From Thermosulfurimonas dismutans (GTDB lineage: Bacteria > Desulfobacterota > Thermodesulfobacteria > Thermodesulfobacteriales > Thermodesulfobacteriaceae), in the NCBI RefSeq assembly GCF_001652585.1, contig NZ_LWLG01000002.1:150001-182000 (forward strand): 32,000 nt of DNA, in the 5' to 3' direction. Below, one piece after another: positions 5,406 to 32,000 of this stretch; position 1 is the first letter of the stretch, and the number at the start of each line of letters is the position of its first letter. Under the pieces are notes generated by a model, which saw nothing but the letters and a program-made list of their open reading frames with translations, was not told where the DNA came from and made no database searches. The translations under genes were made by a program, and so were the position numbers.

Positions 5406-5406
5406 T

Positions 5407-5949
5407 TCAATACTTAATCCATATCCTAAATTCTACAAGATTATAACCCTTAACGTTTTTTTGTTTGGTATATTGTAGATTAACTTCTTTAAACAAATCT
5501 CCGGTACTTTCCAGCTTTTTAAGAAAAATAGCCACATTCTCGTAATCAACAGCAAAACCAACTATAGTTACCATTGAATTACTCAATTCCAAACGGGTTA
5601 AATATATTTTTCCCAAAGGCACAGCCAATAAGACGTCGTCTAACACTTTAATATTATGTCCTTTTTTCTTTTTAAGATTTATAATCGCTTCTATCCTATT
5701 TTTAATTTCCTGATTTTCCTTTTTAAGTTGCCCGATCTTTCTTATCACTTTTCGATATCTATTTCTCTCTTGTTGAAGAAAACTTTTTTCTCTTTCCAGC
5801 AATGCAAGCTCCCTATTAATCCAAATAAATGAAAACAATATAGTTACCAATAAAATCAACAAAACAGAAATATATAAATTAAGCCAACTCACACGAAAAA
5901 CAAACCTCTTTCTCTCTTCTCTAGGAATGAAGTTCAACTTAATAATCAT
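5407..5949 (-). CDS. pilN: Type IV pilus assembly protein PilN
   Basis: 180 aa. The N-terminal LNFIPREERKRF resembles the conserved PilN INLLPWR motif. It has a single TM and a coiled coil, and overlaps the pilM stop by 4 nt. Confidence 0.65.
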   Translation of the reverse strand: MIIKLNFIPREERKRFVFRVSWLNLYISVLLILLVTILFSFIWINRELALLEREKSFLQQERNRYRKVIRKIGQLKKENQEIKNRIEAIINLKKKKGHNIKVLDDVLLAVPLGKIYLTRLELSNSMVTIVGFAVDYENVAIFLKKLESTGDLFKEVNLQYTKQKNVKGYNLVEFRIWIKY

Positions 5950-6983
5950 GCCACGAACTCTCTAACAGCTTGAGAAATGGCAATTACCCCAATCTTATTC
6001 AACTCCAAAATATAATCTTCATCAAAATCATTACAAAAGATGATTTTATCTGAAATATTCAAATCTTTAACAGGAATTTCGAATTTTTCTTGCAAAAATT
6101 CAGACATTCCAGATATTAAAGCCCCCCCTCCAATAACAAAAACTTCCTCTGGATGAGAATAATATTTTGCCTTAAAAATATTTAAACTATTTTCCAATTC
6201 TCCCACCAAAGACCGAAAAAATTCAGTATATATCTCCTTTATTGCATAACCTCTCTCGTCATCGGGGATTTCAAATTTTATATTCTCAGCCTCTTCAAAA
6301 CTTAAATCTAATTCTTGAGCAATATTTTCAGTAATATTAGAAAGCCCCAAGGCAATTTCTCTAGAAAATAATGGTCCATTTTTATCAACAAAAATAGCTA
6401 ATGTTTTAGAAGCTCCAATATCTATAATCATTCTTGCCGAAGGTCCATACAAATACTCTAACAGATTAGAAATACCAAACACATCGATATCAATAGCATT
6501 AACATTCAAGCCTATTTTAGAAAAAATTTCTATAAATTTATTAACATATTCTTTCTTGGATACTGCAAAGATAATTTCATATTCATTATCTTTTATAATA
6601 GGGAAATAATCATAATAAACCTCATTAATATCGAAAGGAATAAAAGCTTCTATTTCTTCTTTTACAGCGGCAGAAAGATCGCTTCCTTCTCGCAAAGAAA
6701 CCGGAATACGATCATAGAGAGCAGTATAGGCATACAAACCCATGTTTAAATTTCGAGTTTTAGTTTTCAAATTTTCTAACAAGCTTTTCAAGCTTTTTAA
6801 AAAAATTTCCTCATTTTGGACAAGACCATCAACCACAACTCCTTTTGGCAATCTTATTTGAGCGAATCCCGTAATAACTATTTTAGAGCCTTTGAGAGTA
6901 GCCTCAGCAAGTTTTAAAGAATAAGTTCCTATATCAAGACCCAAAAAAGATTTTTGGCCCGTCAGTCTCGCAAGAAATTGCAT
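5946..6983 (-). CDS. pilM: Type IV pilus assembly ATPase-like protein PilM (actin/FtsA fold)
   Basis: An FtsA-like fold is indicated by LGLDIGTYSLKLAE and VFVIGGGALISG. I chose the ATG at 6983, preceded by GAGGGGG, over the longer ORF start at 7052. Confidence 0.8.
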   Translation of the reverse strand: MQFLARLTGQKSFLGLDIGTYSLKLAEATLKGSKIVITGFAQIRLPKGVVVDGLVQNEEIFLKSLKSLLENLKTKTRNLNMGLYAYTALYDRIPVSLREGSDLSAAVKEEIEAFIPFDINEVYYDYFPIIKDNEYEIIFAVSKKEYVNKFIEIFSKIGLNVNAIDIDVFGISNLLEYLYGPSARMIIDIGASKTLAIFVDKNGPLFSREIALGLSNITENIAQELDLSFEEAENIKFEIPDDERGYAIKEIYTEFFRSLVGELENSLNIFKAKYYSHPEEVFVIGGGALISGMSEFLQEKFEIPVKDLNISDKIIFCNDFDEDYILELNKIGVIAISQAVREFVA

Positions 6984-7098
6984 TATGCCCCCTCTTTCCC
7001 TTTCATAGCCTAAATGAATTGCTCTTGTCAAGTAGCCAAAGTAATTTATCATTTATAGATACTTTAAAACTAAACATTTCGTATGGATCTAAATTAAG

Positions 7099-18044: not shown

Positions 18045-19952
18045 ATGAAAAAAGTCAAAGAGAAAAAAATCGAAGAAATGAGTATCGATCCAGCCGTTCA
18101 GGAAATTTTACAATTAGCCTCGGAAAAAGGCTATGAAACGGTTTGGGATAGACTGAATTCCCAATCTCCCCACTGTAAGTTCGGTCTGAATGGTCTCTGC
18201 TGCAAAAACTGCATTATGGGGCCATGTAGAATTACGCCAAAAACTACGACCGGGGTCTGCGGGGCCGAAGCGGACACCATTGTTGCCCGCAATATAGTGC
18301 GTGGTATTGCCGCAGGAGTGGCGGCCCATTCTGATCACGGTAGAGCGGTAGCCATTCTCCTAAAAGAAGTAGCCTGCCAAGAAAACAAAGATTACACAAT
18401 ATTTGATACCGAAAAACTTAAAGCCGTGGCCACCAAACTGGGAGTTGATACTGATAGAGATATTCATGAAATCGCCAAGGATGTAGCTGAGATTGCTCTT
18501 AAGGATTTTGGAAAGCAGGACGATAAACCGCTCAAATTCCTTGCCTCTTATGCCCCGAAAAAAAGACTAGAACGGTGGCTGGATTTAGAGAAAAAACTTT
18601 ACTCTGAGACCGACAAGAAAACGGGGGTTATTCCGCGAAATATTGACCGAGAAGTGGCTGACAGTATGCACCGCACCACTATGGGAGTCGATCACGATCC
18701 TCTTTCTTTGTTGATTCAAGGCGTAAGAGCCTCTCTTGCCGATGGATGGGGAGGATCTTTAATCGCTACCGAACTTCAGGACATCCTTTTTGGCACTCCT
18801 CGGATCAGAACTATCATGGCTAACCTTGGAGTAATCTCTCCAGATCATATCAACATCGTGATCCACGGACACGAGCCCATCCTATCTGAAAAAGTAGTTG
18901 AAATCGCAAATACTCCCGACATGCAGAAGTTGGCCCAGGAATATGGAGCTAAAGGAATCAATGTCGTAGGTATGTGCTGCACAGGAAATGAAATCCTAAT
19001 GAGACAGGGAGTACCAGTAGCGGGAAATGAACTCCATCAGGAACTGGCCATCCTGACCGGAGCCGTAGAAGCTATAGTAGTAGATGTCCAGTGTATCTAT
19101 CCTGCTCTAGGCAAGTTGGCCAAATGTTTCCATACGAAGTTCATTTCGACCAGCGATCGAGCCAAATTTCCGGGATCGCTTCACATACAGTTTGAAGAAG
19201 AACACGCCAACGAGGTGGCCAAAAAGATCGTTAAAACCGCTATCGAAGCCTTTCCGAAAAGAGATAAAAGAAAAGTACACATACCATCTTTCAAATCTGA
19301 AGCCGTAGTGGGTTTCAGTAATGAACAACTCCTAAAAATTCTTGGTGGCAGTCTAAAACCCCTTGTCGATGCTATACTGGCCGGAGACATCAAAGGAATA
19401 GCGGGTATCGTAGGATGCAATAATCCTAAAGTAAAACACGACTATTACCATGTTACTTTAACCAAAGAATTAATTAAACGAGATATCCTTGTTATCGGAA
19501 CAGGATGTTGGGCCATCGCAGCCGCAAAGGCCGGATTAATGCGTATTGAAACTCAAGAACTGGCCGGAGAAAGGCTAAGAAAAGTCTGCAAAGCTTTGAA
19601 TATTCCGCCGGTCATTCACATGGGCTCGTGCGTAGATTGTTCCCGAATGCTTACCCTAGCAGGTGCTATTGCAGATTATCTTGAGGCCGATATATCAGAC
19701 CTTCCATTGGTTGGATCGGCACCTGAATGGACTACCGAAAAGGCGGTCTCTATTGGAACCTATTTTGTAGCTTCTGGAGTCCCTGTTCATCTTTGGCCTG
19801 CTCCTCCTATTTCGGGTAGCCCCAAAGTGGTAAGCCTTTTGACCCAAGAAATTAAAAATCTCTTAGGCGGTTACTTTTTTGTAGAAGAGGACCCGATCAA
19901 AACTGTGGACATCATGGAAGCGATAATTCAGGAAAAAAGAAAAGCCTTATGA
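18045..19952 (+). CDS. cooS: Anaerobic Ni,Fe carbon monoxide dehydrogenase catalytic subunit
   Basis: 635 aa. The N-terminal B/D-cluster motif is CKFGLNGLCCKNCIMGPCRI. C-cluster ligand contexts are HGHEP, GMCCTGNE, DVQC, GCNNP, GTGCW and MGSCVDCSR. A strong AAGGAGG SD is present. Confidence 0.92.
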   Translation: MKKVKEKKIEEMSIDPAVQEILQLASEKGYETVWDRLNSQSPHCKFGLNGLCCKNCIMGPCRITPKTTTGVCGAEADTIVARNIVRGIAAGVAAHSDHGRAVAILLKEVACQENKDYTIFDTEKLKAVATKLGVDTDRDIHEIAKDVAEIALKDFGKQDDKPLKFLASYAPKKRLERWLDLEKKLYSETDKKTGVIPRNIDREVADSMHRTTMGVDHDPLSLLIQGVRASLADGWGGSLIATELQDILFGTPRIRTIMANLGVISPDHINIVIHGHEPILSEKVVEIANTPDMQKLAQEYGAKGINVVGMCCTGNEILMRQGVPVAGNELHQELAILTGAVEAIVVDVQCIYPALGKLAKCFHTKFISTSDRAKFPGSLHIQFEEEHANEVAKKIVKTAIEAFPKRDKRKVHIPSFKSEAVVGFSNEQLLKILGGSLKPLVDAILAGDIKGIAGIVGCNNPKVKHDYYHVTLTKELIKRDILVIGTGCWAIAAAKAGLMRIETQELAGERLRKVCKALNIPPVIHMGSCVDCSRMLTLAGAIADYLEADISDLPLVGSAPEWTTEKAVSIGTYFVASGVPVHLWPAPPISGSPKVVSLLTQEIKNLLGGYFFVEEDPIKTVDIMEAIIQEKRKAL

Positions 19953-20030: not shown

Positions 20031-20729
20031 ATGTTTTCTGTAATATTGAATTATTTGCGCCATAGTTTTAATGTAGGAATAGTTATTTTCGACGAAAAAT
20101 TTAATATTCTTTGTACTAATGAAACCATAGGAAAAATCGTAGACTTCCATTTTAGTCATGACAATTTGATAAACCTTTTTGATATCCATTCAGAGGAAGC
20201 CTTCAAAAAAATAAAACAAATGGTAAAAGAAGCCAGAAATGATCGCAGAAGCGATAATTATGTTTTAAAAATCTTTTCCAAAAAAGGAGAACGAGATACA
20301 ATTTTACTCGGAAAAGTCTTTCTCCTTGACAGTCAATGTCAAAACCAATTTATCGCTTTGCTTTATGATGTCACAGATCTAGTAATGGAAGGGCACAAAA
20401 CTATCGTAAAATTACCTGCCTATGAAGGCAATGATCTTCTCCTTTTAAATGTAGAAAATATACATTTTTTGAAAGCTGCAGGGAATTATACTGAGATTTT
20501 TTGTGATAACAAGATATATTTGAGTCCTCTTTCTATGGCTAAAATAGAAAAAAAGTTAGATCCTCGTCAATTCATCAGAATTCATAGGAGCTTCATTGTA
20601 AACATTGACAAAGTGAAAAAACTCATCAAAGCAGATGGCAAATATCGCGTTTTATTACAAAACGATCACAACTTACCTCTAAGCCGAAATAAAACTGATA
20701 CTTTTCTAGAAATGTTTGGTTTGAAATAG
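20031..20729 (+). CDS. Single-component PAS-LytTR transcriptional regulator, RcoM-like (candidate CO-responsive regulator)
   Basis: The C-terminal LytTR domain is LLLLNVENIHFLKAAGNYTEIF...FIRIHRSFIVNIDKV. The N-terminal 120 aa or so is PAS-like (VGIVIFDEKFNILCTNET...). There is no receiver domain. It lies immediately downstream of cooS. Confidence 0.65.
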   Translation: MFSVILNYLRHSFNVGIVIFDEKFNILCTNETIGKIVDFHFSHDNLINLFDIHSEEAFKKIKQMVKEARNDRRSDNYVLKIFSKKGERDTILLGKVFLLDSQCQNQFIALLYDVTDLVMEGHKTIVKLPAYEGNDLLLLNVENIHFLKAAGNYTEIFCDNKIYLSPLSMAKIEKKLDPRQFIRIHRSFIVNIDKVKKLIKADGKYRVLLQNDHNLPLSRNKTDTFLEMFGLK

Positions 20730-20827: not shown

Positions 20828-22351
20828 ATGGCGCCCTTTAGGCTTTCTCTCCCCTGCAAAGGACTGGCTTGTAAAATTCTTTGCGGAAGTGGATTGGCAA
20901 TTCTAATCCCTTTTATTTTCTTTTTCGTCTTTCTGAGATATCACGACCAAAAATGGATGGAATATGAACTTCGATCACAAGCCAGGGCTATTTATAGGTT
21001 GATAACTGTTACTAGACAATGGATATCATGGCATGGAGGTATTTATATTAAAAATGATGACAATTTTCAACTTTTAACTCCTTCGCACTTTGTAAGAGAT
21101 CTTTCTTTGTTTTCCAAAAACAATCTACCTTATACTATAAAAATAGCCGTAGAAAATCCCAAAAATCCAGCTCATGAACCGGATGAGTTTGAAAAAAAAG
21201 CTATAGAAATTTTCAAAAATAGAGGACGTGAATATTGGAAACTAGAAAAAAATCTTTATAGATATGCAGCTCCCCTTACGTTTAAAACCGAATGTTTAAG
21301 TTGTCACCGATGGTCCAAAGAAAAGACTATTGCAGGCTGCATAAGCATTTTATTATCTACAGATAAAATCAAGCAACATTTAATTGAAAGACGGCGCATA
21401 ATAAATACTTTCTTTATTTTAACGTTTGCTTCAATGATAATTAGCCTGTCATTACTTATTAGAAAGTGGGTTTTAAATCCTCTAAATAAATTCAAAGTCG
21501 CAACTCAAAAAATAAAAGAAAGAAAATATATACAGGTAGAAATAAAAACAGAAGACGAATGGCATGAACTAGCAGAAACGTTCAACGATATGATCAATAA
21601 AATTAGGAACCATCAAGAAGAATTAGAAGCAAAGATCAGAGAAGCTACAGAAAAGTTGAGGACTGCGTACGAAGAGCTAAAGAAAACCGATCAATTTAAG
21701 AGTGAATTTTTTTCAAACATTTCCCATGACCTAAAAACTCCTTTAAGTGCCATCAAAGGCACTATTGACTTTCTCCTCCGAAAAAATCCCCATGATCAGC
21801 ATTTATTGATTGCTCAAAAGAATGTTCACAAACTACTCCAAATGATTAACACCATCCTAGACATTACAAGATTAGAGCACGGACAACTGGAATTAAATAA
21901 GGAGCTTTTCGATTTGCGGGAACTTGTTGAGGAGGCCTGCGTAGCCCATCAGCCTTTGGCCTGGGAAAAAGACATCAAAATCTCCTGGGAAATACCTCCT
22001 CATCCTTTGTGGGTTGAGATTGATCCTGAAAGGATGTACGGTGTAATTTCAAACCTTATCGATAATGCCGTCCGATTTTCTCCCCCCAATACTGAAGTCA
22101 TAGTTAGAGCTTTCAAGGAAAACGATAACCGTGTTCTTTTAGAGGTGGAAGATTACGGTCCTGGAATAAACTCGGAAGAAAAAAATCGTATCTTTGAAAA
22201 ATTTTATCATAAACGTTCGGGAGGATTGGGTTTGGGATTAGCCATAAGTTATGGTATTATAAAGGCCCACGGAGGAGATATTTGGGTAAAGGACCCGGAA
22301 GGCCACAAAGGAAGTATTTTTGTTATAACTTTACCCCTAAAAAATGCCTAA
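20828..22351 (+). CDS. Sensor histidine kinase with a periplasmic c-haem (CXXCH) DUF3365/Tll0287-like sensor domain, HAMP, HisKA and HATPase_c
   Basis: Two TMs flank a 155-aa or so periplasmic domain containing YRYAAPLTFKTECLSCH (CXXCH at nt 21293-21307). It also has the H-box FFSNISHDLKTPL, the N-box NLIDNAVRFSP and the G-box GGLGLGLAISYG. Confidence 0.85.
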   Translation: MAPFRLSLPCKGLACKILCGSGLAILIPFIFFFVFLRYHDQKWMEYELRSQARAIYRLITVTRQWISWHGGIYIKNDDNFQLLTPSHFVRDLSLFSKNNLPYTIKIAVENPKNPAHEPDEFEKKAIEIFKNRGREYWKLEKNLYRYAAPLTFKTECLSCHRWSKEKTIAGCISILLSTDKIKQHLIERRRIINTFFILTFASMIISLSLLIRKWVLNPLNKFKVATQKIKERKYIQVEIKTEDEWHELAETFNDMINKIRNHQEELEAKIREATEKLRTAYEELKKTDQFKSEFFSNISHDLKTPLSAIKGTIDFLLRKNPHDQHLLIAQKNVHKLLQMINTILDITRLEHGQLELNKELFDLRELVEEACVAHQPLAWEKDIKISWEIPPHPLWVEIDPERMYGVISNLIDNAVRFSPPNTEVIVRAFKENDNRVLLEVEDYGPGINSEEKNRIFEKFYHKRSGGLGLGLAISYGIIKAHGGDIWVKDPEGHKGSIFVITLPLKNA

Positions 22352-23030
22352 AGAACGCATCCTTCTCATAGAAGACGATCCGGACTTGCAGAAAATACTG
22401 AGTTCCCAATTTGAACTCGATAATTATACGGTAGAAGTAGCTGGCAGTGGCAAAGAAGCCCTTGAAAAAATAAAAGACTTTCAACCCGAACTTATTATTC
22501 TGGATCTCAACCTTCCCGACACCGATGGTCTCAAACTCTGTAAAAGTTTGCGCTCTATCACCAAGGCCCCTATTATCATCCTTACGGTAAGGGATAACCT
22601 TTCGGACAAACTAAAAGGGTTTGAAATGGGGGCCGACGACTACCTCACCAAGCCCTTCGAATATCTTGAACTGGAGGCCAGGGTCCGTGCCTGCCTGCGC
22701 CGGGCGAGGCTCATAAGTCCCCAAAAAGAAGAACTTGACTTCGGGCACTTTAAGGTCATCCCCGCTAAACGGGAGGTATGGGTAAAGGACCAAAAGGTTC
22801 ACCTTACCAGGAAAGAGTATGATCTATTAGAACTATTCATCTCCCATCCTGGCGAGGTCTTAAGTCGCGACTTTATCAAGCAGGAAATCTGGCCCAATAA
22901 AGAGATTTATCCCTGGAGCCGCACTTTAGATGTCCATATCAAAAGACTACGAGAAAAGATCGAACCCGACCCCGAAAATCCTAGATATATCATTACTCAC
23001 CCTGGAGTGGGTTATCGTTTTGAACCTTAG
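22344..23030 (+). CDS. OmpR/PhoB-family response regulator
   Basis: The receiver has the LIILDLNLPDTDG acceptor Asp and a KPF motif. The winged-helix output contains LTRKEYDLLELF and GVGYRF. It overlaps the kinase stop by 8 nt. Confidence 0.9.
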   Translation: MPKERILLIEDDPDLQKILSSQFELDNYTVEVAGSGKEALEKIKDFQPELIILDLNLPDTDGLKLCKSLRSITKAPIIILTVRDNLSDKLKGFEMGADDYLTKPFEYLELEARVRACLRRARLISPQKEELDFGHFKVIPAKREVWVKDQKVHLTRKEYDLLELFISHPGEVLSRDFIKQEIWPNKEIYPWSRTLDVHIKRLREKIEPDPENPRYIITHPGVGYRFEP

Positions 23031-23880
23031 AATTTCCAGTTTTAGATTTTTCATTTAAGGGTTTTAAATAATAATTTCTTTTCCAGTAGAAACTCAAAGC
23101 TCCAGTAGGACAGTAATCCACACATTCCCCACAATTCCAGCAATAAGGACTATAAGAACCTCCTCGATTGACGGGTAATCCCATAGGGCACACCTTTTCG
23201 CATATTCCACATTGGGTACATTTCTTACTTCTCAGTCTAACTTTCAACTTTCTTTTATGTCCAATGAAGGATAGCAACCCTCCTAAGGGACAAAAATATC
23301 GGCAATAAAAACGACGGGTAAAAAGATGTAAAAAAAGGATGAGCAGTACTATGAGACCTTCCAGAGCTAAAGAATGAAAAATAATACCCAACATGAGTTC
23401 TCGACCGACAAGACCAGGAGGAGAAATAAAAACAAAAATAGGGAAACCCAATATCATAGAAAGAACAAACTCTCCAATCAAAGCAAACCAAATAATTTTC
23501 AAGGCAAGAACAATCTTATCCTTCCACGTAAGAGGATTAAAATTAAAAAATTTTTTTCTTATTAAATCAATAGTTTCATGCAGAAAACTAATTGGACAAA
23601 TCCAAGAACAAAAGACACGCCCTAAATAGAAAGCTACTATAATAGGTATAGATATTCCAATAAGGGAGGGCAAATAAACATACTTAGAAATCAACAAACT
23701 CTCCAAACCTTCGAGAGGAGAAACAATCCATAACCTGCCTATCCCAAGAGATTGATACCATCCTTGAACGAAAGTGAAGTGAAAATACAAGTTAAGAATA
23801 GGAGTCAATAAGATCAACAAAAAAGCTGCACTTAAAGAAAGGTAACGCCATTTACGATATTTTGTCCGTTTTCTAGGCAT
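22993..23880 (-). CDS. napH: NapH-type membrane quinol dehydrogenase subunit (polytopic, 2x[4Fe-4S])
   Basis: It has four TMs with CSWICP and CRYFCPLGG motifs. The C-terminal ferredoxin motifs are CTQCGICEKVCP and CWNCGECVDYCP. It follows napG with a TAATG overlap. Confidence 0.8.
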   Translation of the reverse strand: MPRKRTKYRKWRYLSLSAAFLLILLTPILNLYFHFTFVQGWYQSLGIGRLWIVSPLEGLESLLISKYVYLPSLIGISIPIIVAFYLGRVFCSWICPISFLHETIDLIRKKFFNFNPLTWKDKIVLALKIIWFALIGEFVLSMILGFPIFVFISPPGLVGRELMLGIIFHSLALEGLIVLLILFLHLFTRRFYCRYFCPLGGLLSFIGHKRKLKVRLRSKKCTQCGICEKVCPMGLPVNRGGSYSPYCWNCGECVDYCPTGALSFYWKRNYYLKPLNEKSKTGNSKVQNDNPLQGE

Positions 23881-24443
23881 TATTTTGAAGCCTTAAAGGC
23901 ATAAATTGGCTCTATAACTATAGCCTTTGGTTTTACAGGACAAGAATAGGTACAAAGACCACAGCCCACACAGGCCTCTGGAACAACTATCGGACGCAAA
24001 CGGTCCAACTTAATAGCCTGTTCTTTAAAAGGACAAGCGTTATAACAAGATCGACATATACCCGTTCCGTTCCAGGTTACACATAAGCGTCTGTTCACTC
24101 GAGCAAGTCCCATACGGACTTCTTTCTGAGAGACCTTTTGTAAAGTTCCTGTGGGACACACCTTTACACATCGCATGCACAAATAACAGGGGATCTTTTC
24201 GGCATAGATTACGGGAGTACCGGCATAAAATCCATGCTTGATATCCAAAATCTTTATGCTCCTATAAGGACAACTCTCGGCACAGCGCCCACATCGAATA
24301 CAACGAGAAGCAAAAAAATCCTCGGGGATGGCTCCTGGAGGCCTTAACACGTTAGTTTTAATCGGAGAAGATGTAAATTCTCCCGGAGCACATCCTACTA
24401 AAATTCCCGTGGCCAAAAATTTTAAAAACAATCTCCGATCCAT
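23880..24443 (-). CDS. napG: NapG-type periplasmic ferredoxin (Tat signal, 4x[4Fe-4S])
   Basis: It has the twin-arginine leader MDRRLFLKF. The four Cys clusters are CIRCGRCAESCP, CYLCMRCVKVCP, CRSCYNACP and CVGCGLCTYSCP. Confidence 0.8.
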   Translation of the reverse strand: MDRRLFLKFLATGILVGCAPGEFTSSPIKTNVLRPPGAIPEDFFASRCIRCGRCAESCPYRSIKILDIKHGFYAGTPVIYAEKIPCYLCMRCVKVCPTGTLQKVSQKEVRMGLARVNRRLCVTWNGTGICRSCYNACPFKEQAIKLDRLRPIVVPEACVGCGLCTYSCPVKPKAIVIEPIYAFKASK

Positions 24444-24731
24444 TTACTCCTTCCAAGGCCTCTCTGGGACGTATTCTCCTTTCTCTATTCGTTCAACCTC
24501 GTCTTCCACATTGAAATAAGCTACATTAACCGAAAGCACCCCTTCTATCTTTTTAGGCCATTCCTTTACTTCTTTTTCCATTTCCTCAAAAGTATCCCCT
24601 TCATAAACCACTACCATTTCTCCCTTATCGTTCCAGCCGTGTATCTCCAATCCGGAAACTTTAGAAAGGGAAGATTTTACTTCTTCCAATTTCTCAGGAA
24701 TGAAACAGATCACCAAACCGGCAACAGGCAT
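24444..24731 (-). CDS. napD: NapD-like Tat-proofreading chaperone for NapA
   Basis: About 95 aa with the pattern VAGLVICF...VSGLEIHGWNDKGEMVVVYEG...IEGVLSVNVAYF, as in the NapD ferredoxin-like fold. I chose the ATG at 24731, preceded by GAGGTGAGGTG. The longer GTG start at 24776 would lie inside a terminator hairpin. Confidence 0.65.
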   Translation of the reverse strand: MPVAGLVICFIPEKLEEVKSSLSKVSGLEIHGWNDKGEMVVVYEGDTFEEMEKEVKEWPKKIEGVLSVNVAYFNVEDEVERIEKGEYVPERPWKE

Positions 24732-24747
24732 TTTCACCTCACCTCTC

Positions 24748-24773
24748 AAAAAAAGCCGGGCATAAAGCCCGGC
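24748..24773 (-). terminator. Canonical intrinsic terminator between napA and napD (minus strand)
   Basis: The minus strand reads GCCGGGC-TTTAT-GCCCGGC followed by TTTTTTT. The napD SD and ATG come immediately after it. Confidence 0.6.
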
Positions 24774-24784
24774 CACGCATCCAA

Positions 24785-24813: not shown

Positions 24814-27216
24814 CTACATTTTATGACCTACCACATAGGGTCTGAGCGGTTTGGGGCCGGATACCTTCCGAATTCGGCAGGCACAGATCTTGAATTCCGG
24901 TTCTTTCGAGCCAGGATCGAAGGCGTCTTTGGTAACCCGATTGGCCATACGCTCTTCATGCATATCATGCCAGTAAATGAACACCATGCCCTCAATCGGC
25001 CCCTCATAAACCTTTGCCGGAAGCACGATCTTGCCACGGCGGGTTTCAATTTCGACCATGTCGTTGGGATTAATACCCAGCCTTCTGGCGTCCTTGGGAT
25101 TGATCTCTACGTAAGCATAAGGGTTGGCCCGTAAGAGTTCCGGAATACGGCCAGTCATACTGCTGGTGTGCCAGTGATCAATAACCCGTCCGGTGGACAG
25201 GAAGAACGGATATTCAGCATCCGGCTCCTCAGCCGCACCCTTGTAAGGCCTAAGCCAGATATAGAGTTTGTGATCCTTGTGGGCCGGACCATAAAAGACA
25301 TAAGGATCATCGCCCTTAGCATGCTTGTCTGCCAGAGGATCGATACCCCTGACGAACTTTTTATAGGTTCCTCCCTTGAGGGCGTGTTCCTTAGTAGGCG
25401 CCGGCCATTGCACCCCGTCCGGACGCTGTTTAAGCACCTCATAGGTGACTGCGGAAAGGTCATTGTCCCGACCTTTAGTTAGTTTCTGACTGTATTCTTC
25501 CCAAATGGCCTTCGGAAGTTCATACCCCTCCTCAAGGCCTATAAAGGGTTCTACACACTTCTTAATCACAGGGTCGTTAAGTTCCTTGGCCAGCCGAAGA
25601 GCCCACTCCCTTACGATCCAGACCTCGGGCTTGGCCTCTCCGGGAGGATCTATCACTTTGACCGTAAGCTGTGAACGACGCTCGGTGCATCCGTAAACAC
25701 CGGTCTTTTCAAAATGAAACGCTGTAGGGAGAACCAAATTGGCAACTTCCGTGGTCTTGGTAGGGAAGATGTCTGTAACCACTATAAAAACATCATCGCG
25801 CCGAAGACCTTTACGATAGAAATCACAATTAGGAAGACTCTGGGCCGGACTAGTACAGTTGATCCACATAGCCTTGATTTTGCCCTCATTCACCGCCCGG
25901 AACATGGCAATGGTATGATATCCAGGCTTGGCCGGAATACGACCACGGGGTACACCCCAGAGATCCTCTACCTCGTGACGAAGTTTATCGATCTTAACCG
26001 GTCGGTGAGCTGGAAGGATATGACAAAGTCCGCCCCCTTCACGCACACCTCCACAGGCATTGGGCTGCCCAGTAAGAGAGAAACTGTCCGCTCCAGGTTT
26101 ACACAACTGCCCGGTTAAAAGATGGAGGTTGTGAATCAGATTGTTGGCCCATACTCCTCGGACACGCTGATTGATCCCCATGGTCCAAAGAGACATAGTA
26201 GCCTTGGACTTGGCAAACCAGCGGGCCGCAGTGCGAATCTTTTCCGGAGTAATGTTTCCACCACAAATCTCAGCCGCCCTTTCCGGGGTGTACTGTTTCA
26301 GAAATTCCTTGTATTCCTCAAAGGATACATCTTTGGGAGGTTTACCTAATTTAAATTTGCAATACTTTTTAATAAAGGTTTCATCGTAAAGCCCTTCCTC
26401 AACAATCACGTAGGCCATAGCATTTAGAAGAGCCAAATCCGTCCCCGGACGGAACTGGAGATGGAGGTCCGCAATTCGGGAAGTAGGCGAAACCCGTGGA
26501 TCGGCGTTGATGACCTTGACCTCGTCGGGCTTGGATAACTTGCGGTTCATCACCCGCCGGAAGAGAACAGGATGACACTCCGCCATGTTGCTTCCAATGA
26601 TGAAGAAACAATAGGCCTTCTCGATGTCGGCGTAAGATCCGATAGGTTCATCGGCCCCGAAAGAAGTTAGGTAACCTCCAACGGCACTGGCCATGCAAAG
26701 CCGGGGATTACCCTCTACGTTGTTAGTCCTTAGACCGGCACGCATCACCTTTTGAAAGATATAGGTTTCCTCCGTGAGGGCCTGACCGGAACCGTAATAA
26801 GCTACCGAATTGGGACCGTGGTTTTTGACGGCTTCGGCAAACTTTTTAGCAGCAATATCTAAGGCCTCTTCCCAAGAGATTTCACGAAAGGGTTGATCCT
26901 TGCGCTCACGATAGAGAGGTTTCTTGAGTCTTTCAGGATGGTGAATTATTTTATAAAAAAGCATACCTTTCATGCAAACATAACCTTTATTGGTTGCAGA
27001 CTCGGGGATACCTTTAATAGCTACAGGTTTTCCTCCCTTGAGACCTAAGTAAACCCGGCACCCTACTCCGCAAAAACGGCACACACCGGGTTTCCAACTA
27101 TCTACATCCGCAGCCTGGGCTGCGTCTTTCATGCTTTTAGGAAGCTCTATACCAACCAGGGAAGCCGCTGTTAATGCGGCCGTCCTTTTAATAAATTGTC
27201 TTCTACTAAGCTTCAT
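24814..27216 (-). CDS. napA: Periplasmic nitrate reductase catalytic subunit NapA (Mo-bisMGD, [4Fe-4S], Tat signal)
   Basis: 800 aa with the Tat leader MKLSRRQFIKRTAALTAAS. The N-terminal FeS motif is CRFCGVGCRVYLGLKGGKPVAIKG. It has molybdopterin oxidoreductase architecture and is followed by napD, napG and napH. Confidence 0.9.
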   Translation of the reverse strand: MKLSRRQFIKRTAALTAASLVGIELPKSMKDAAQAADVDSWKPGVCRFCGVGCRVYLGLKGGKPVAIKGIPESATNKGYVCMKGMLFYKIIHHPERLKKPLYRERKDQPFREISWEEALDIAAKKFAEAVKNHGPNSVAYYGSGQALTEETYIFQKVMRAGLRTNNVEGNPRLCMASAVGGYLTSFGADEPIGSYADIEKAYCFFIIGSNMAECHPVLFRRVMNRKLSKPDEVKVINADPRVSPTSRIADLHLQFRPGTDLALLNAMAYVIVEEGLYDETFIKKYCKFKLGKPPKDVSFEEYKEFLKQYTPERAAEICGGNITPEKIRTAARWFAKSKATMSLWTMGINQRVRGVWANNLIHNLHLLTGQLCKPGADSFSLTGQPNACGGVREGGGLCHILPAHRPVKIDKLRHEVEDLWGVPRGRIPAKPGYHTIAMFRAVNEGKIKAMWINCTSPAQSLPNCDFYRKGLRRDDVFIVVTDIFPTKTTEVANLVLPTAFHFEKTGVYGCTERRSQLTVKVIDPPGEAKPEVWIVREWALRLAKELNDPVIKKCVEPFIGLEEGYELPKAIWEEYSQKLTKGRDNDLSAVTYEVLKQRPDGVQWPAPTKEHALKGGTYKKFVRGIDPLADKHAKGDDPYVFYGPAHKDHKLYIWLRPYKGAAEEPDAEYPFFLSTGRVIDHWHTSSMTGRIPELLRANPYAYVEINPKDARRLGINPNDMVEIETRRGKIVLPAKVYEGPIEGMVFIYWHDMHEERMANRVTKDAFDPGSKEPEFKICACRIRKVSGPKPLRPYVVGHKM

Positions 27217-27237: not shown

Positions 27238-27612
27238 TTATTCAGCATGCTTTTTGAAAAAATGGGGACTATGGCACTCCCAACAAGCTTTATCCTTAGG
27301 ACAATTGTCGTAGGCATTGGAATGACAGGTACGACAAGTCTCCCGAGTAGGCTCATGAAAGGTCTCAAAGGTTCCATGACACTGGAAACATTTGACCATA
27401 GCAAGACCATGACGAGACTTAAACCATTCTTCATAAACCTCAGGGGTAGCCTCCTTGTGGCATTCACTACAGGCGATCAACTTTTCATCCTCCGAGAGCT
27501 CAGGATGAGCAACCGCTGGCTTTTCCGCAGAAGGTGCCGGCGCTTTCTGAGGAGCACAGGCAAAAACAAGAGCCGTTAAACCTAACAAAAGTATCCCCAA
27601 CCTTGTCTTCAT
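27238..27612 (-). CDS. napM: Small tetrahaem c-type cytochrome, probable lipoprotein (NapM-like)
   Basis: It has four CXXCH motifs (CSECH, CFQCH, CRTCH, CWECH) in a mature protein of about 105 aa. The signal ends in LVFAC. I chose the ATG at 27612, preceded by AAGGAGGG. It lies 21 nt upstream of napA. Confidence 0.7.
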   Translation of the reverse strand: MKTRLGILLLGLTALVFACAPQKAPAPSAEKPAVAHPELSEDEKLIACSECHKEATPEVYEEWFKSRHGLAMVKCFQCHGTFETFHEPTRETCRTCHSNAYDNCPKDKACWECHSPHFFKKHAE

Positions 27613-27640
27613 CACTACCCTCCTTAAAAAAGAAGATTTA

Positions 27641-27663
27641 GGGGGAGGCAAAATACCTCCCCC
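27641..27663 (-). terminator. GC-rich hairpin with a U-rich tail between the porin gene and napM (weak or partial terminator)
   Basis: The minus strand reads GGGGGAGG-TATTTTG-CCTCCCCC followed by TAAATCTTCTTTTTT. It sits 12 nt after the porin stop. Confidence 0.4.
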
Positions 27664-27675
27664 CTGTCAATTAGC

Positions 27676-29160
27676 TTAGAAAGTGAAACGCAGTTCGGCG
27701 TAGAAGAAAGTTAGATCCTCGTCTTTGGCGTAATTATCCTCGACAACATCATCCCCCCAGATATGGCTGAGATAGAAATCAAGCCCGACCTTAACACCAT
27801 TGTATTGATAAATGTCCTTAATAAATACCGAGAGATCCCACATGGTAAGAAGATCGTCGCTCTTTCCAAGGTGAGCTCCCTTGGTGGCGTAACTCAGCAC
27901 ATCGGGACGCATCATACCGGAGCCGAGGTACCAGTAGTCTTCCTTTTCGGTAAGATCCACAAAGTGGACATCCGAACGCACCACCACCTTCTTATGGGGT
28001 TTGAGAATAACCTGAGCCATCCAGTAATTGGTGTTCATAAAGGTGTAAGAGGGGGTAAGGGAGTATATCCTCAAAGTGGGAATCATCATGAAGAAGGTCT
28101 CATGATCGCCATCATTAGGATCATCGTCGCCAGTACCATAGAAATAACCCACACGGAACCAGGGCTGCCAGGGGAGATTCTTAAACTTGTAACCGGCCTC
28201 AATGGCTATGGCATAAGCATCATGATCCAAAGTAGGATTGCGTCCCCAAACTCCCCACTGGTAGCCTCCCCAGAGGAGGAAGTCGGCAGTGCCAGGCCCA
28301 ATATCATAGGCATAGATAAGATGACCTCCGATCATATTGACTTCACAATCACCAAGGCCGTCTCCACCGGCAAGCTTCCTCTCATCGTTGTAGTAGTAAT
28401 AGAAAACCTGAGCATCCAGGTTGGGAATATAAGGATTGGTGTCTTTAAGGCTCAGGACCGCAGTAATAATGTCAATGTCGTGAGTGGACTCCCCGTTCAT
28501 TTCTGGATCATCCCGACGGAGATAAAAACCACCCGGAGTGGGATGCATGTAAGAGATGGTAAGATTCCAAGGATTAAAATCGTAAGAGAGCACACCACCG
28601 TCAAAAGCCCGGCCCACACGCGACCAATCAAAGGGACCGATCATGCGCTGAGAAACGCGAACCTTTTTCACCCACTTGAGGGTTCCATTTTTGGGAAGAC
28701 CACCTTCTAAGCCAGATAGATAGAAGAAACGTCCGAGCTTGACACTTAGGCCCGGAACCATTGGCGGTTTAACCCGGACCCAGGCCTGAGAAATGGCCCC
28801 ATAACCAATATCCGTAGCCTTATTCGGATCCGTACCAAAAGCACCATTGAATTGATAATAAAGCGCCCCCAATCCGAACTGCCCATCATCAGGAAGATTA
28901 AAGAATTGGGTCCAATGTAACTGCGCGTAAGCATCCACTACCGAAGAAGTAAAACCGGCACCGAAACGCATCTTGCTCGAAACGAAGGAATAATCCTCAT
29001 CTTTTCCCGCAGCACCACTATCGAAAGTCTCCCAGTACTCATACCTGATCTCTTCCTTAAAATCCAACCTAGCTTTAATCTTGCCCTCGACCGTATAGGC
29101 CAGGGCCCCAGAGACCCAAACAAGAAATCCTACCAATGCCAACCATGTCCATCTCTTCAT
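27676..29160 (-). CDS. Outer-membrane beta-barrel protein (porin-like; possibly of the alginate-export/AlgE-like or anion-porin type)
   Basis: 494 aa with the signal peptide WLALVGFLVWVSGALA. It shows an alternating amphipathic beta-strand pattern rich in Y/G/W/D. The C-terminal OMP signature AELRFTF ends in Phe. Confidence 0.7.
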   Translation of the reverse strand: MKRWTWLALVGFLVWVSGALAYTVEGKIKARLDFKEEIRYEYWETFDSGAAGKDEDYSFVSSKMRFGAGFTSSVVDAYAQLHWTQFFNLPDDGQFGLGALYYQFNGAFGTDPNKATDIGYGAISQAWVRVKPPMVPGLSVKLGRFFYLSGLEGGLPKNGTLKWVKKVRVSQRMIGPFDWSRVGRAFDGGVLSYDFNPWNLTISYMHPTPGGFYLRRDDPEMNGESTHDIDIITAVLSLKDTNPYIPNLDAQVFYYYYNDERKLAGGDGLGDCEVNMIGGHLIYAYDIGPGTADFLLWGGYQWGVWGRNPTLDHDAYAIAIEAGYKFKNLPWQPWFRVGYFYGTGDDDPNDGDHETFFMMIPTLRIYSLTPSYTFMNTNYWMAQVILKPHKKVVVRSDVHFVDLTEKEDYWYLGSGMMRPDVLSYATKGAHLGKSDDLLTMWDLSVFIKDIYQYNGVKVGLDFYLSHIWGDDVVEDNYAKDEDLTFFYAELRFTF

Positions 29161-29191: not shown

Positions 29192-29764
29192 CTAAAGCCA
29201 TGCCTGCATAATTTTGCGAATTAACAAAGGAGAATAAAAAGTGACGTAAACCTTAGCTCGGGCCTTGGGATCTTTCTGATTAGCAAACTCTACTATTTTG
29301 TGGTCGCAATACAGCTTTACTATAGCCAAAATTTTGGGCTCTTCGCCCTTTTCAACTATACGGTTGAAGGTTTCTGAGGAAATTTTTCCCTTGGGAGAAA
29401 AATACCAGAAGAGTATCTTGTCATGGGCCTCAAAAGTGGGCTCCCCCAAAAGCCCCATAAGTTCCCCCACCAACCTCTGCAACTCTTGGGGAGCGATACG
29501 TGGGAACTCATCATAAAGTGCTAAAATTCGCCGACTCTTCTCTTCTATCGCCACTACCAGAGAACCATTTTTAAATCGGAGGGTTCCCGGAAGAGCCCCT
29601 TTTAAAGGCCTAAGATCTTTCGCCCCCTCTAACTTGTCACCAAGACGAAAATCTTTATAAACAAGATTCAACTGTTGAATCTTCTCTAAGTCGGAAGCCA
29701 GCACTACCGTTCCAAAAAACAAGCACAGGATCAGAACAAGTCCCACCGCCTCAAGAACTTTCAT
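29192..29764 (-). CDS. Hypothetical secreted/periplasmic protein, about 190 aa, no family recognised
   Basis: I chose the ATG at 29764 (MKVLEAVGLVLILCLFFGTVVLA signal), preceded by GGTAGAGGA. The ORF is clean and runs in the same direction as its neighbours. I recognise no motifs. Confidence 0.5.
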   Translation of the reverse strand: MKVLEAVGLVLILCLFFGTVVLASDLEKIQQLNLVYKDFRLGDKLEGAKDLRPLKGALPGTLRFKNGSLVVAIEEKSRRILALYDEFPRIAPQELQRLVGELMGLLGEPTFEAHDKILFWYFSPKGKISSETFNRIVEKGEEPKILAIVKLYCDHKIVEFANQKDPKARAKVYVTFYSPLLIRKIMQAWL

Positions 29765-29782
29765 TCCTCTACCCCGAATTAA

Positions 29783-29810
29783 AGCGGGGGAGGATATGCC
29801 CTCCCCCGCT
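29783..29810 (-). promoter_or_regulatory. GC-rich stem-loop 3' of the octahaem cytochrome gene
   Basis: An 11-bp perfect stem pairs AGCGGGGGAGG with CCTCCCCCGCT around a 6-nt loop. It lies 6 nt after the stop. Only a short TT follows, so it is not a canonical terminator. Confidence 0.45.
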
Positions 29811-29816
29811 TCACCT

Positions 29817-31451
29817 TTACTGACCCTTTCCATAGCGTTCTTTGTATTCCTCCTCTACCTGCTTCATGAGCGCTCCAAAACCCTTTATTCGCCAGCTATG
29901 CTCAGGAGTGTTCAGGATCTCATTGATGAGCTTCTGGTACTTCTCAAGTTTGCCGTGCTCCTTAGCCACCTCGAGGACCTCGGGGATGTACTCGTAGTAG
30001 AAGTGATTGGCAACTTCATAGAGCCCATGCCAGTGGGTGTAGTCCGGACCGAGCATAGCGGCTCCGTGACGGGCACGACGACCTTCATGATGCCAGATCT
30101 CAAACCAGATCCAACCCACCTTGGACATGAAGGGGGACTTGGGCACCAGACCGTCCTTGACCAGCTCGGAGAAGATGCGCTTGGCGGGCTTAGCAAACTT
30201 CTCGTTATAAGTGACCACCAGGGCATCAAACTGCTCATAGAAGTTATCCACTTGCTGCATGCTGTGACAGCTCTTACAGACCTCTTTCATCTCGGCCCGG
30301 CGCTCCTTCCAGCTGATCACCTCCTTCACCTGTTTCTTAGTCTTCACCTTCACTAGCTTGTCACCCTTGCGCACGTAGTCGTAGACCTGCACAAATTGCC
30401 CGGGAAGAGGCGGAATGTCTCCGGGAATGTCGTAAACCTTGCCGTCCGTAGTGATCACCCGGTTCAGCTTCACCGAGATCGGCGGACGTAGATTCCAAGA
30501 GATACGGTCTCCCACATTGTGGGTGTTTGGCGCGATAGAACCGTTGGATTTCACATAAGCCCCCATATGACAGGTAGAGCAGGTAGGAGCGAAGTGATAA
30601 TCCTTACCCAAGACCCAGCTACCGGTCTTAAGGATGTTCATCCCCATAAGCCCCCGCTCTCTGACCGCAGAAAGATAAGCAATTCCGTGCTTGGATTCTT
30701 CATAAACCTCCTTCTGGGGATGATCCGGACCCAGGTGACACTTACCACAAGCAAAGGGCTGACGAGCCACACTCGCCCGAAAAGCGTGCTTGGAGTGACA
30801 GGCATTACATGAACCCTTAGTGCCGTCAGGATTGATCCGCCCCATACCACTGTTAGGCCAGGTGGAAGGATCAAACTGAGGCGCTCCAGTTTTATTGCGA
30901 ATAATGTTTCCTTTCTCGTCTTTCAGAACCTTGACCACCGATCCGTGACACTGCCAGCAAGCATTCTGAGCATCAGCCTTGGCCGCGTAAGCCGGAAGTC
31001 CCCACTTCTTCACCGACTCCGCCGGAGCACTACAGATCACCTCTCCAAGGATATTATCCAAGGATGCCATGATCTGTCCGGCCGTAGCATGATGGGAATT
31101 CTCAAACTCTTTAAATTCTCGGGAATGACAATAAGAGCAATCCTTGGGACTAATTAGGGTCTTAATAAAGGCCCCTTCGTGGTTATAACCCAAGGGATCC
31201 CCGGCATCAGCCGCGTGACAGGTGTAACAACCCACCGGGCCTTCTTTGGCTGCCGCATGGGGAGATTCCTGCCACTGAAACACCAAAGACTTGTTCTCCT
31301 TAAGGTGACACATCATACACTTCTTGTTCAATTCTTTAACTTTAGGATTAGTGACATCCTTAGAAAACTCCGTAGTAGCCCAACCAACTCCTCCCAACCA
31401 AAAAACACTTGCTACCATTACACCTAACAATCTCAAAAACCTCCATCTCAT
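29817..31451 (-). CDS. Octahaem c-type cytochrome of the hydroxylamine oxidoreductase (HAO) family, probable reductive type
   Basis: It has eight CXXCH motifs. The block CNACHSKHAFRASVARQPFACGKCHLGPDHPQKEVYEESKHG closely parallels the HAO core, and APTCSTCHM also matches. It has a Sec signal. I chose the ATG at 31451, preceded by GAGGAGGTG, over the TTG at 31466. Confidence 0.85.
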   Translation of the reverse strand: MRWRFLRLLGVMVASVFWLGGVGWATTEFSKDVTNPKVKELNKKCMMCHLKENKSLVFQWQESPHAAAKEGPVGCYTCHAADAGDPLGYNHEGAFIKTLISPKDCSYCHSREFKEFENSHHATAGQIMASLDNILGEVICSAPAESVKKWGLPAYAAKADAQNACWQCHGSVVKVLKDEKGNIIRNKTGAPQFDPSTWPNSGMGRINPDGTKGSCNACHSKHAFRASVARQPFACGKCHLGPDHPQKEVYEESKHGIAYLSAVRERGLMGMNILKTGSWVLGKDYHFAPTCSTCHMGAYVKSNGSIAPNTHNVGDRISWNLRPPISVKLNRVITTDGKVYDIPGDIPPLPGQFVQVYDYVRKGDKLVKVKTKKQVKEVISWKERRAEMKEVCKSCHSMQQVDNFYEQFDALVVTYNEKFAKPAKRIFSELVKDGLVPKSPFMSKVGWIWFEIWHHEGRRARHGAAMLGPDYTHWHGLYEVANHFYYEYIPEVLEVAKEHGKLEKYQKLINEILNTPEHSWRIKGFGALMKQVEEEYKERYGKGQ

Positions 31452-31466
31452 ACAGCACCTCCTCAA

Positions 31467-32000
31467 CTATTTTTTATAGGTTTTAACCTCTTCCGTTCCA
31501 AGCCATAATGGAAAAATTTTGGAAAGAACAAACAATATAATTATAGGGGCAATAAGAATAATAATGGTAGGCAAAATACCTTCTTTCTCGAAGAACTCGG
31601 GATGATAAAACACAAAGCCTCTACCACTCTTAGACATCATTTGACCACCCACTACCACATTCCAACGCATGCAGTAAACCTGAATAAGGAGCATAATTGA
31701 AGAAATCGCAGACAGATATTGCAAGGCCTTACCTCTCACATTTGCTAAAGATAATACTCCAAGAACTACCAGAGGAATGAACGAGAAAATAAAAACTTGC
31801 ATTACCCAAAAACTAACATAAAGAGGACCAAATAGCAGTTCATGCAAATGATGCCAACTTTCTTTCCTTAAATAGGCATGAACTCCGACTTCAAGAAGCT
31901 CAAAAACTACGTCGATAATAAGAAATCCCCACAAGTATTTTACCAAAGAAGAAAGACACTCTTCGTCTACAGCGCGACCTTTAACCCAGTGAACAAACAA
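31467..32000 (-). CDS. NrfD/PsrC-family polytopic membrane (quinol-interacting) subunit; C-terminal part only, the gene continues past the window edge
   Basis: It is open to the window end, so the apparent Met is an edge artefact (TTG). It has several TMs and MRWNVVVGGQ, which is typical of NrfD-like proteins. The stop lies 15 nt before the cytochrome ATG. Confidence 0.7.
   Translation of the reverse strand: MFVHWVKGRAVDEECLSSLVKYLWGFLIIDVVFELLEVGVHAYLRKESWHHLHELLFGPLYVSFWVMQVFIFSFIPLVVLGVLSLANVRGKALQYLSAISSIMLLIQVYCMRWNVVVGGQMMSKSGRGFVFYHPEFFEKEGILPTIIILIAPIIILFVLSKIFPLWLGTEEVKTYKK

Follow-up and report, generated by a model that had tools for sequence, protein, structure and literature searches.

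The 32,000-nt window analyzed here (Thermosulfurimonas dismutans contig NZ_LWLG01000002.1, positions 150,001-182,000, forward strand) ends in a cluster where an octahaem c-type cytochrome of the hydroxylamine oxidoreductase (HAO) family is encoded on the reverse strand next to an NrfD-like membrane subunit, and where genes of the periplasmic nitrate reductase Nap are also present. With a probability that we put at about 0.5, the sequence data suggest that this cytochrome and its partners form a periplasmic menaquinol:nitrite (or hydroxylamine) reductase. The octahaem gene (29817..31451, TDIS_0606, exact protein match to WP_068669165.1) is preceded by the gene of the NrfD-like subunit (TDIS_0607, 31467..32000, same strand), which runs off the window end, so that the C-terminal 177 residues are seen. 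In the scheme that we infer, the haem-free NrfD-like subunit would oxidize menaquinol, and four [4Fe-4S] clusters of an NrfC-like subunit, exported by twin-arginine translocation (Tat), would carry the electrons onward to a tetrahaem cytochrome that a single N-terminal helix anchors in the membrane. From there the electrons would enter the haem chain of the secreted octahaem, and its catalytic haem 4 would reduce the nitrite made by the neighbouring NapMADGH, the product being probably ammonium, possibly hydroxylamine or nitric oxide (NO).

Profile and structure searches place the octahaem in the HAO family, in agreement with an earlier note made from the sequence of this DNA. Its match to PF13447 scores 76.7 bits against a cutoff of 21.9 (E 2.4e-21). 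In a single-protein search of all PDB sequences the best match is IhOCC, the Igni_0955 protein of Ignicoccus hospitalis (4QO5, 6e-44), followed by HAOr of Kuenenia stuttgartiensis (6H5L), HDH, HAO of Nitrosomonas (NeHAO, 1FGJ) and HOX. A profile of 25 relatives compared with PDB matches HAO-family structures alone, namely 4qo5 over the full length (7e-76), 6h5l (6e-28), 1fgj (1e-24), HOX and HDH, and gives no match to MccA, Otr, ONR or NrfA at E below 0.01. The AlphaFold model of the octahaem is poor (mean pLDDT 59.7, shallow alignment, monomeric) and was used for a coarse Foldseek ranking, which is the same (IhOCC 6e-12, ONR at E of 0.05 or worse). Thus the closest solved structure is IhOCC and not MccA, Otr or ONR, the other assignments considered in the earlier note. 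Three helices, 398-432, 444-465 and 469-498, are predicted in this model with moderate to high pLDDT, and may be compared with the trimer-interface helices of HAO. Two HAO segments quoted in the earlier note were confirmed as well: the core block is printed for 1FGJ residues 239-280 and is colinear with octahaem residues 215-256, and the second segment, GLAHVNPGGWTYTEGWG, is present in 1FGJ, where its Tyr is residue 467.

The octahaem open reading frame (ORF) of 544 amino acids contains exactly eight CXXCH motifs, at residues 45, 75, 105, 165, 215, 235, 291 and 392, the same eight that were read from the sequence before; neither a CXXCK nor a CX3-4CH motif was found in a scan of this ORF. The spacing of the motifs parallels that of IhOCC, and the 20-residue spacing between haems 5 and 6 is common to NeHAO. 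In particular, the haem 4 and haem 5 motifs are 50 residues apart in the octahaem and 48 in IhOCC, compared to 10 in HAO; the additional residues form an insert of about 40-50 residues with the motif PNxGxGRxNPDG, common with IhOCC, and PNxGxGRxNxDG is invariant in the insert throughout the octahaem family. Since the identity to IhOCC is only 26%, the alignments define the family as a distant sister group of IhOCC.

The predicted catalytic site is conserved. The haem 4 motif is CWQCH, with His as the proximal ligand, and the distal pair of NeHAO, Asp267-His268, aligns with Asp243-His244 of the octahaem, where IhOCC has Asp-Val instead. The motif CHxGPDH is kept in 79/79 relatives examined, and the column of NeHAO Tyr334 holds Arg322, invariant in the octahaem family.

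The direction in which an HAO-type enzyme works is associated with a Tyr-haem crosslink, and HAO-family proteins without it are reductases (PMC8042395). The crosslinking Tyr467 of NeHAO is the Tyr within AHVNPGGWTYTEGWG (1FGJ sequence). NeHAO, Brocadia HOX (with AHMSMYNQTYGNG) and HDH (with AHGSWNDATYSDG), all of them oxidative, have a common register A-H-x6-T-Y-x2-G. Read in this register without gaps, IhOCC has A-M-NGQDWT-T-F, HAOr A-H-AQQDVS-W-W, and the octahaem A-M-LGPDYT-H-W. Hence the general form A-[H/M]-x6-x-[Y/F/W] fits NeHAO, HOX, HDH, IhOCC (Phe) and HAOr (Trp). The earlier note had placed a Trp in the crosslink column by eye, with a Tyr three residues upstream. The Tyr is indeed there (Tyr471), and both it and Trp474 are invariant in a 25-sequence alignment spanning both clades described below. 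The placement of the Trp was reproduced in part: MAFFT in the L-INS-i and G-INS-i modes sets Trp474 in the Tyr467 column, alongside IhOCC Phe and HAOr Trp, but the E-INS-i mode shifts the alignment by one residue and sets His473 there, and global hhalign opens a three-residue gap, pairing Tyr471 with Tyr467. We favour Trp474 because the ungapped register is common with five solved proteins, and from these alignments the octahaem is most likely devoid of the Tyr-haem crosslink; therefore it should work reductively. IhOCC and HAOr, which have no crosslink in their crystals, hold Phe and Trp, respectively, at the Tyr467 column, and Trp and Val, respectively, at the position of Tyr471.

For these alignments the segments of 1FGJ, 6T5E and 6HIF were taken from the PDB search. 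Searches for further HAO sequences with a 102-aa NeHAO fragment yielded short fragments only, and a 34-aa HAOr fragment retrieved only itself. The HAO sequence of ammonia-oxidizing bacteria was stitched from the frameshifted haoA-haoB-cycA-cycB loci L084 and L085 (L-numbers denote related loci compared with the window). In these two nitrifier assemblies haoA (L084 3104-4810; L085 2303-3781) is split by frameshifts into 3-5 called fragments, probably due to assembly errors.

The octahaem begins with a basic stretch, and the hydrophobic one that comes next ends in ...GWA/TTEF. At the corresponding position, 25 aligned relatives have an A-x-A-type context just before the conserved TT(E/K), as would be expected of a cleaved Sec signal peptide. 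The GenBank model OAQ21385.1 has 488 amino acids and starts at Val57, hence it lacks both the signal peptide and the first haem motif, although the first CXXCH is invariant in the 25-sequence alignment; the current RefSeq model has 544 amino acids. The 2016 genome paper deduced a cytoplasm-facing complex from absent signal peptides (PMC4911364), probably because of the 488-aa model. That the complex faces the periplasm is indicated by the c-type haems, by the length of the ORF (544 aa) and its invariant first CXXCH, and by the Tat motif of the iron-sulfur (FeS) subunit described below.

The stop codon of the NrfD-like gene (TAG, 31469-31467) is followed by a 15-nt spacer (31452..31466, TTGAGGAGGTGCTGT) and then by the octahaem ATG at 31451. 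This distance had been given correctly by the earlier note, though the Shine-Dalgarno sequence GAGGAGG, which was said to span the upstream stop, lies after it, inside the spacer. The NrfD/PsrC-like nature of the upstream gene is not evident from the fragment itself, as it scores 21.1 bits with Pfam NrfD (E 2.7e-4), below the cutoff of 25.8 bits. However, the fragment shares 72-76% identity with residues 214-389 of full-length orthologues, one of which matches Pfam NrfD (PF03916) with 129.3 bits (E 3e-37) and has about 8-9 hydrophobic segments; the orthologue of TDIS_0607 in L081 is also called NrfD, so that the assignment holds.

The genes beyond base 32000 can be seen in the loci with the most similar octahaem proteins, L001 (87% identity) and L081 (92%). 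In both, the equivalent of the window end is followed by genes encoding a 255-aa NrfC-like protein and a 191-aa tetrahaem cytochrome. The former has the Tat motif RRKFLG and 16 Cys in four [4Fe-4S] cluster motifs, and is the subunit that the earlier note proposed to look for past the window; it was found in 30 loci of the close relatives (clade A, see below), and for T. dismutans itself it is reported as TDIS_0608 (PMC5276818, PMC4911364). The tetrahaem cytochrome, which had not been foreseen, has a single N-terminal transmembrane segment, and shows no match to the NapC/NirT, NrfH or PF03264 models. With the NCBIfam NrfD and NrfC models, the scores of the NrfD-like and NrfC-like subunits are both far under the cutoffs; the FeS subunit resembles TtrB (8e-66), PsrB (2e-47), DsrO and NrfC, but no curated cutoff is reached.

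Upstream of the module in L001 (24-2915) and L081 (1-2802), at a distance of about 5 kb and past nrdD and nrdG, there are also genes for a Psr/Ttr-like molybdopterin oxidoreductase and its four-cluster FeS subunit.

A combination of a multihaem cytochrome with NrfC-like and NrfD-like subunits is also the architecture of NhcABCD and of complexes of the alternative complex III type. Hence the octahaem could be a non-catalytic periplasmic electron hub, and the complex an Nhc/Hmc/Qrc-like cytochrome:menaquinone oxidoreductase, possibly running towards the quinone pool, e.g. in sulfur oxidation; or, if Tyr471 did bond to the haem, as its hhalign position in the crosslink column would allow, the octahaem could act as an oxidative, crosslinked HAO. 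The HAO-like octahaem Igni_0955 of I. hospitalis is reduced by the hydrogenase of this archaeon, and an electron-relay role was proposed for it. Nevertheless, we consider either variant very unlikely: the Asp-His pair of the catalytic pocket is conserved, the other three alignments keep Tyr471 out of the crosslink column, IhOCC and HAOr with their non-Tyr residues in that column are not crosslinked in crystals, and amo-type or hydrazine-synthase-type genes were not found nearby.

A scan of species-representative genomes yielded 405 octahaem relatives, and a protein search gave at least 7,965 clusters at 90% identity for the whole family. Relatives with at least 58% identity to the octahaem were assigned to clade A, and those with 40-47% to clade B. 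Clade A is found in Thermodesulfobacteriota, including Desulfobulbaceae, Desulfocapsaceae and Desulfurivibrionaceae, and in a few Campylobacterota. The gene order here is tetrahaem, NrfC-like, NrfD-like, octahaem, with the three partners present in 28, 30 and 32 of 34 loci, respectively, and every missing partner is explained by a contig end. Together with the accessory gene that follows the octahaem gene (see below), these genes make up a five-gene unit conserved in every testable close relative.

The clade-B relatives are encoded without NrfCD and have other neighbours. In Shewanella and Photobacterium the octahaem gene is followed by a tetrahaem gene of the NapC/NirT family (3e-49 and 2e-54 with the respective models). 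In Gemmatimonadota it is preceded by a cytochrome b gene and followed by a bona fide napA (945 bits, cutoff 904 bits), and by this gene order cytochrome b is the third type of electron-input partner for the octahaem family. In Planctomycetota the octahaem gene is located beside napA, napG and napH. Among the Gemmatimonadota loci, L056 (8762-13906) encodes a membrane-anchored relative of the octahaem between a b6/ExtP-like cytochrome b and NapA, as do L058, L064, L068 and L072.

In T. dismutans the nap genes belong to the same cluster and the same strand as the module, as had been noted before, but they do not directly follow the cytochrome gene, as two genes (for the accessory protein and a 494-aa outer-membrane barrel) separate it from napMADGH. 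The first of the nap genes encodes a small NapM-type tetrahaem cytochrome (27238..27651) with four CXXCH and c7/c3-type Pfam matches; it is already named NapM in the literature. The NapM orthologue has 124 amino acids, and the true start of napM is probably an internal ATG, giving about this length. It is followed by the catalytic subunit NapA (24814..27216, exact match to OAQ21381.1, NCBIfam NapA as the best model with 1.5e-210, Tat signal), napD (24444-24776, Pfam NapD 2.7e-15), napG (23880-24443, NCBIfam NapG 1.4e-36) and napH (22993-23880, NCBIfam NapH 2.3e-37). In about 10 clade-A loci nap genes are found within 10 kb of the module, in at least four arrangements. This recurrent linkage is the strongest argument that the octahaem family handles the product of nitrate reduction; a nitrogen-oxide substrate is favoured because the linkage recurs in independent arrangements, phyla and electron-input modules.

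Several observations weigh against this assignment. The NrfC-like subunit scores best with TtrB (222 bits, with the model cutoff at 416), no nap genes are seen in about 13 clade-A loci with at least 8 kb on both sides, more than half of the well-flanked clade-A loci have none, and most of the hosts are sulfur disproportionators or sulfate reducers. The hhalign pairing of Tyr471 with Tyr467 has been described above. Neither expression nor enzymology of TDIS_0606-0609 is reported in the literature searched, and T. dismutans has other candidate nitrite reductases, namely Otr, a second Hao homologue, TDIS_1483, and a separate NrfHDC-like cluster, TDIS_1141-1144 (PMC5276818, PMC4911364).

The hosts, the similarity of the FeS subunit to TtrB and PsrB, and the loci without nap would all be in line with a complex that, by analogy with MccACD, reduces a sulfur compound (tetrathionate, polysulfide, thiosulfate or sulfite), as was offered as an alternative by Slobodkina 2017 (PMC5276818); moreover, multihaem enzymes are promiscuous between nitrogen and sulfur substrates. 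The proximity of nap in Thermosulfurimonas would then reflect co-regulated anaerobic respiration, or chance. We regard a sulfur substrate as unlikely, since the octahaem matches neither MccA nor Otr at E below 0.01 and keeps the Asp-His distal pair of HAO, the TtrB score is far under the cutoff, and the nap linkage recurs across independent arrangements and phyla. In addition, a gene of nitrogen metabolism, hcp, adjoins the module in one locus: a true Hcp is encoded directly upstream of it in L086 (4492-6135, hydroxylamine reductase model, 839 bits, Desulfobacterota-like).

The same Hcp gene could be read in another way, with the octahaem making or removing NO or hydroxylamine without a six-electron reduction, and cytoplasmic Hcp or another enzyme completing the formation of ammonium, similarly to a reversed hydroxylamine-ubiquinone redox module (reverse-HURM-like). 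The octahaem would then be either an NO-forming nitrite reductase like Kuenenia HAOr, the second-closest solved structure, which reduces nitrite to NO, or a periplasmic detoxifier of NO and hydroxylamine. T. dismutans encodes Hcp elsewhere in the genome (PMC5276818). On the other hand, Hcp adjoins the module in only 1 of about 88 loci, and the presence of a dedicated quinol module with three subunits hints at a respiratory enzyme of high flux. Moreover, the epsilonproteobacterial Hao, which has no critical Tyr, reduces nitrite and hydroxylamine in vitro, and Hao-type enzymes of these bacteria release ammonium. Consequently, a division of labour of this kind seems improbable.

If the module is a nitrite reductase, its role may be a wider one. 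We tentatively propose, as a possibility that goes well beyond the window itself, that in nrfA-less Thermodesulfobacteriota and in some Campylobacterota the five-gene module is the main nitrite reductase for energy-conserving ammonification, and that, together with the NapC- and cytochrome-b-coupled relatives from Gammaproteobacteria, Gemmatimonadota and Planctomycetota, it represents a large and widespread class of enzymes for dissimilatory nitrate reduction to ammonium that is missed by nrfA/onr surveys.

The fifth gene of the unit (29192..29764, reverse strand) encodes an exported accessory protein of about 190 amino acids. Its homologue comes after the octahaem gene in almost every close relative, with 32/32 testable clade-A loci positive; it is absent in L083, and Desulfobacula phenolica is named as an exception. 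It is also found at L001 10648-11232, L081 11685-12266, and in about 35 further loci. The protein has the motif GEPTxxAHDKxIYWAY, with Pro109, Thr110, Ala113, His114, Trp120, Gly126 and Lys150 invariant (alignment A3), and no Pfam, NCBIfam or PDB match. A word-based search gave two relatives, and an exhaustive search among 1.84 billion proteins yielded 111 clusters at 50% identity. The single-sequence AF2 model is useless (pLDDT 41). The accessory protein could serve as a dedicated subunit or act in maturation. In L088 (9001-13657), and also in L010, the pair of octahaem and accessory genes is tandemly duplicated behind one tetrahaem/NrfC/NrfD set.

A G+C-rich hairpin with a 14-bp stem (29780..29813, reverse strand, -29.5 kcal/mol, z -3.4 compared to shuffles) begins 3 nt after the octahaem stop codon. 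Its U-tract is weak, and it may attenuate transcription or stabilize the mRNA. A second, similar G-rich hairpin (both have GGGGGAGG...CCTCCCCC) is located on the same strand at 27640-27664, between the barrel gene and napM; the two may subdivide the cluster as attenuators or mRNA stabilizers. The barrel gene (27676..29160, reverse strand, 494 amino acids, exact match to OAQ21383.1) encodes an outer-membrane beta-barrel of the alginate-export family (PF13372 1.8e-21), and is seen only in the loci of Thermosulfurimonas and Thermodesulfatator; speculatively, the barrel may be an anion channel for nitrate or nitrite. We take the accessory gene to be TDIS_0605 and the barrel gene to be TDIS_0604, provided that the locus tags run consecutively.

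The genes of a two-component system, a sensor kinase and an OmpR-type response regulator (20828..23030, forward strand; domains HisKA, HATPase_c, Response_reg and Trans_reg_C), are convergent with nap. The kinase, encoded beside napH, has a Tll0287-like domain (PF11845 1.6e-16) with one CXXCH, CLSCH at residue 156. Homologous sensor domains adjoin the module in 10 related loci, four of which (L003, L005, L011, L013) show no nap genes; in L003, L005, L011 and L012 the sensor gene directly follows the accessory gene. The kinase is a candidate haem-based sensor controlling the module.

Among the other genes of the window, the one of the Prismane family at 18045-19952 (forward strand) was considered as hcp and rejected, as it encodes CooS, the catalytic subunit of anaerobic CO dehydrogenase (746 bits, compared to 56 for Hcp). 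It is followed by the gene of a LytTR-type regulator (20031-20729, forward strand). The type IV pilus assembly genes pilM, pilN, pilO, pilP and pilQ (secretin) at 2484-7052 (reverse strand) are unrelated to the octahaem locus.

The T. dismutans locus and its possible role are already in print, hence the hypothesis of the earlier note is reasonable but not new. In Mardanov 2016, TDIS_0606-0609 is an oxidoreductase for which coupling to nitrate reduction is considered probable from its position beside nap (PMC4911364). Slobodkina 2017 listed TDIS_0606 as a HaoA homologue in an "11-gene cluster" and hypothesized that TDIS_0606-0609 reduces nitrite or, alternatively, sulfur compounds; according to the same study, T. 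dismutans grows by S0-dependent nitrate ammonification and has no nrfA (PMC5276818). Allioux 2022 repeated the proposal for other Thermosulfurimonas strains. At the same time, the statement that no NrfD-coupled HAO-type enzyme has been characterized still holds, as the 2021 catalogue of NrfD-containing complexes includes none. Hence a putative HAO-family reductase on an NrfCD-type module is new relative to characterized systems, and our analysis adds the conserved five-gene unit, the recurrent nap linkage, the alternative partners in distant relatives, and the correction of the 488-aa model, and it somewhat strengthens the plausible idea of the function. Several other systems were considered as precedents and set aside as different enzymes: the pentahaem selenoprotein MccSep, an octahaem nitrite reductase of the CXXCK type from Desulfurivibrio, an NrfA homologue of D. 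alkaliphilus that is reported to be membrane-anchored, and the NrfD clusters of Deferrivibrio and of metagenome-assembled genomes of Planctomycetota.

Several sulfur-oxidizing or sulfur-disproportionating bacteria, including T. dismutans, ammonify nitrate without NrfA, and the identity of their nitrite-reducing enzyme is the question to which the module relates. If the proposed function is correct, the module would be the third type of electron-input module for HAO-family reductases, besides the NapC/NrfH-type and dihaem partners, and nitrate ammonification in vents, sediments and groundwater would gain a large protein family as a marker. The discovery value is limited by the fact that the hypothesis has been in print since 2016-2017.

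The module may be compared with several known systems. IhOCC, the best match by both sequence and fold, is described as a nitrite reductase without P460 haem; it resembles the octahaem in having eight CXXCH with similar spacing, the insert between haems 4 and 5, and a non-Tyr aromatic residue in the crosslink column, but it is archaeal, only distantly similar, and has Asp-Val in place of Asp-His. HAOr of K. stuttgartiensis (Kustc0458/0457) is the second-best structural relative, a proven reductase that is not crosslinked and has Trp in the same column; it differs in its soluble dihaem partner, dodecameric structure, NO product and location in the anammoxosome. The epsilonproteobacterial Hao is also a reductive HAO-family octahaem without the crosslinking Tyr, used beside Nap by ammonifiers devoid of nrfA. 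Its NapC/NrfH-type partner is of the same type as that of the Shewanella and Photobacterium relatives, whereas the T. dismutans module uses the NrfD-like and NrfC-like subunits and a tetrahaem cytochrome that matches neither NapC/NirT nor NrfH.

As for the electron-input part, NrfABCD of Escherichia coli has the same periplasm-facing order, from quinol via NrfD, NrfC and the multihaem NrfB to a catalytic multihaem enzyme, but this enzyme is the pentahaem NrfA with CXXCK, unlike the octahaem with its His-ligated haem 4, and NrfB is a soluble pentahaem protein, whereas the tetrahaem cytochrome of the T. dismutans-type module is membrane-anchored. In MccACD, as proposed here, an octahaem cytochrome c is fed by an NrfC/NrfD-type quinol dehydrogenase; however, no sequence similarity to MccA is detectable, and the catalytic haem is in the C-terminal module, as in HAO, in contrast to the N-terminal one in MccA. 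Finally, NhcABCD, Hmc and alternative complex III also combine a multihaem cytochrome with a four-cluster FeS protein and an NrfD-like subunit, but their cytochromes are c3- or ActA-type carriers and not HAO-family proteins with a catalytic pocket.

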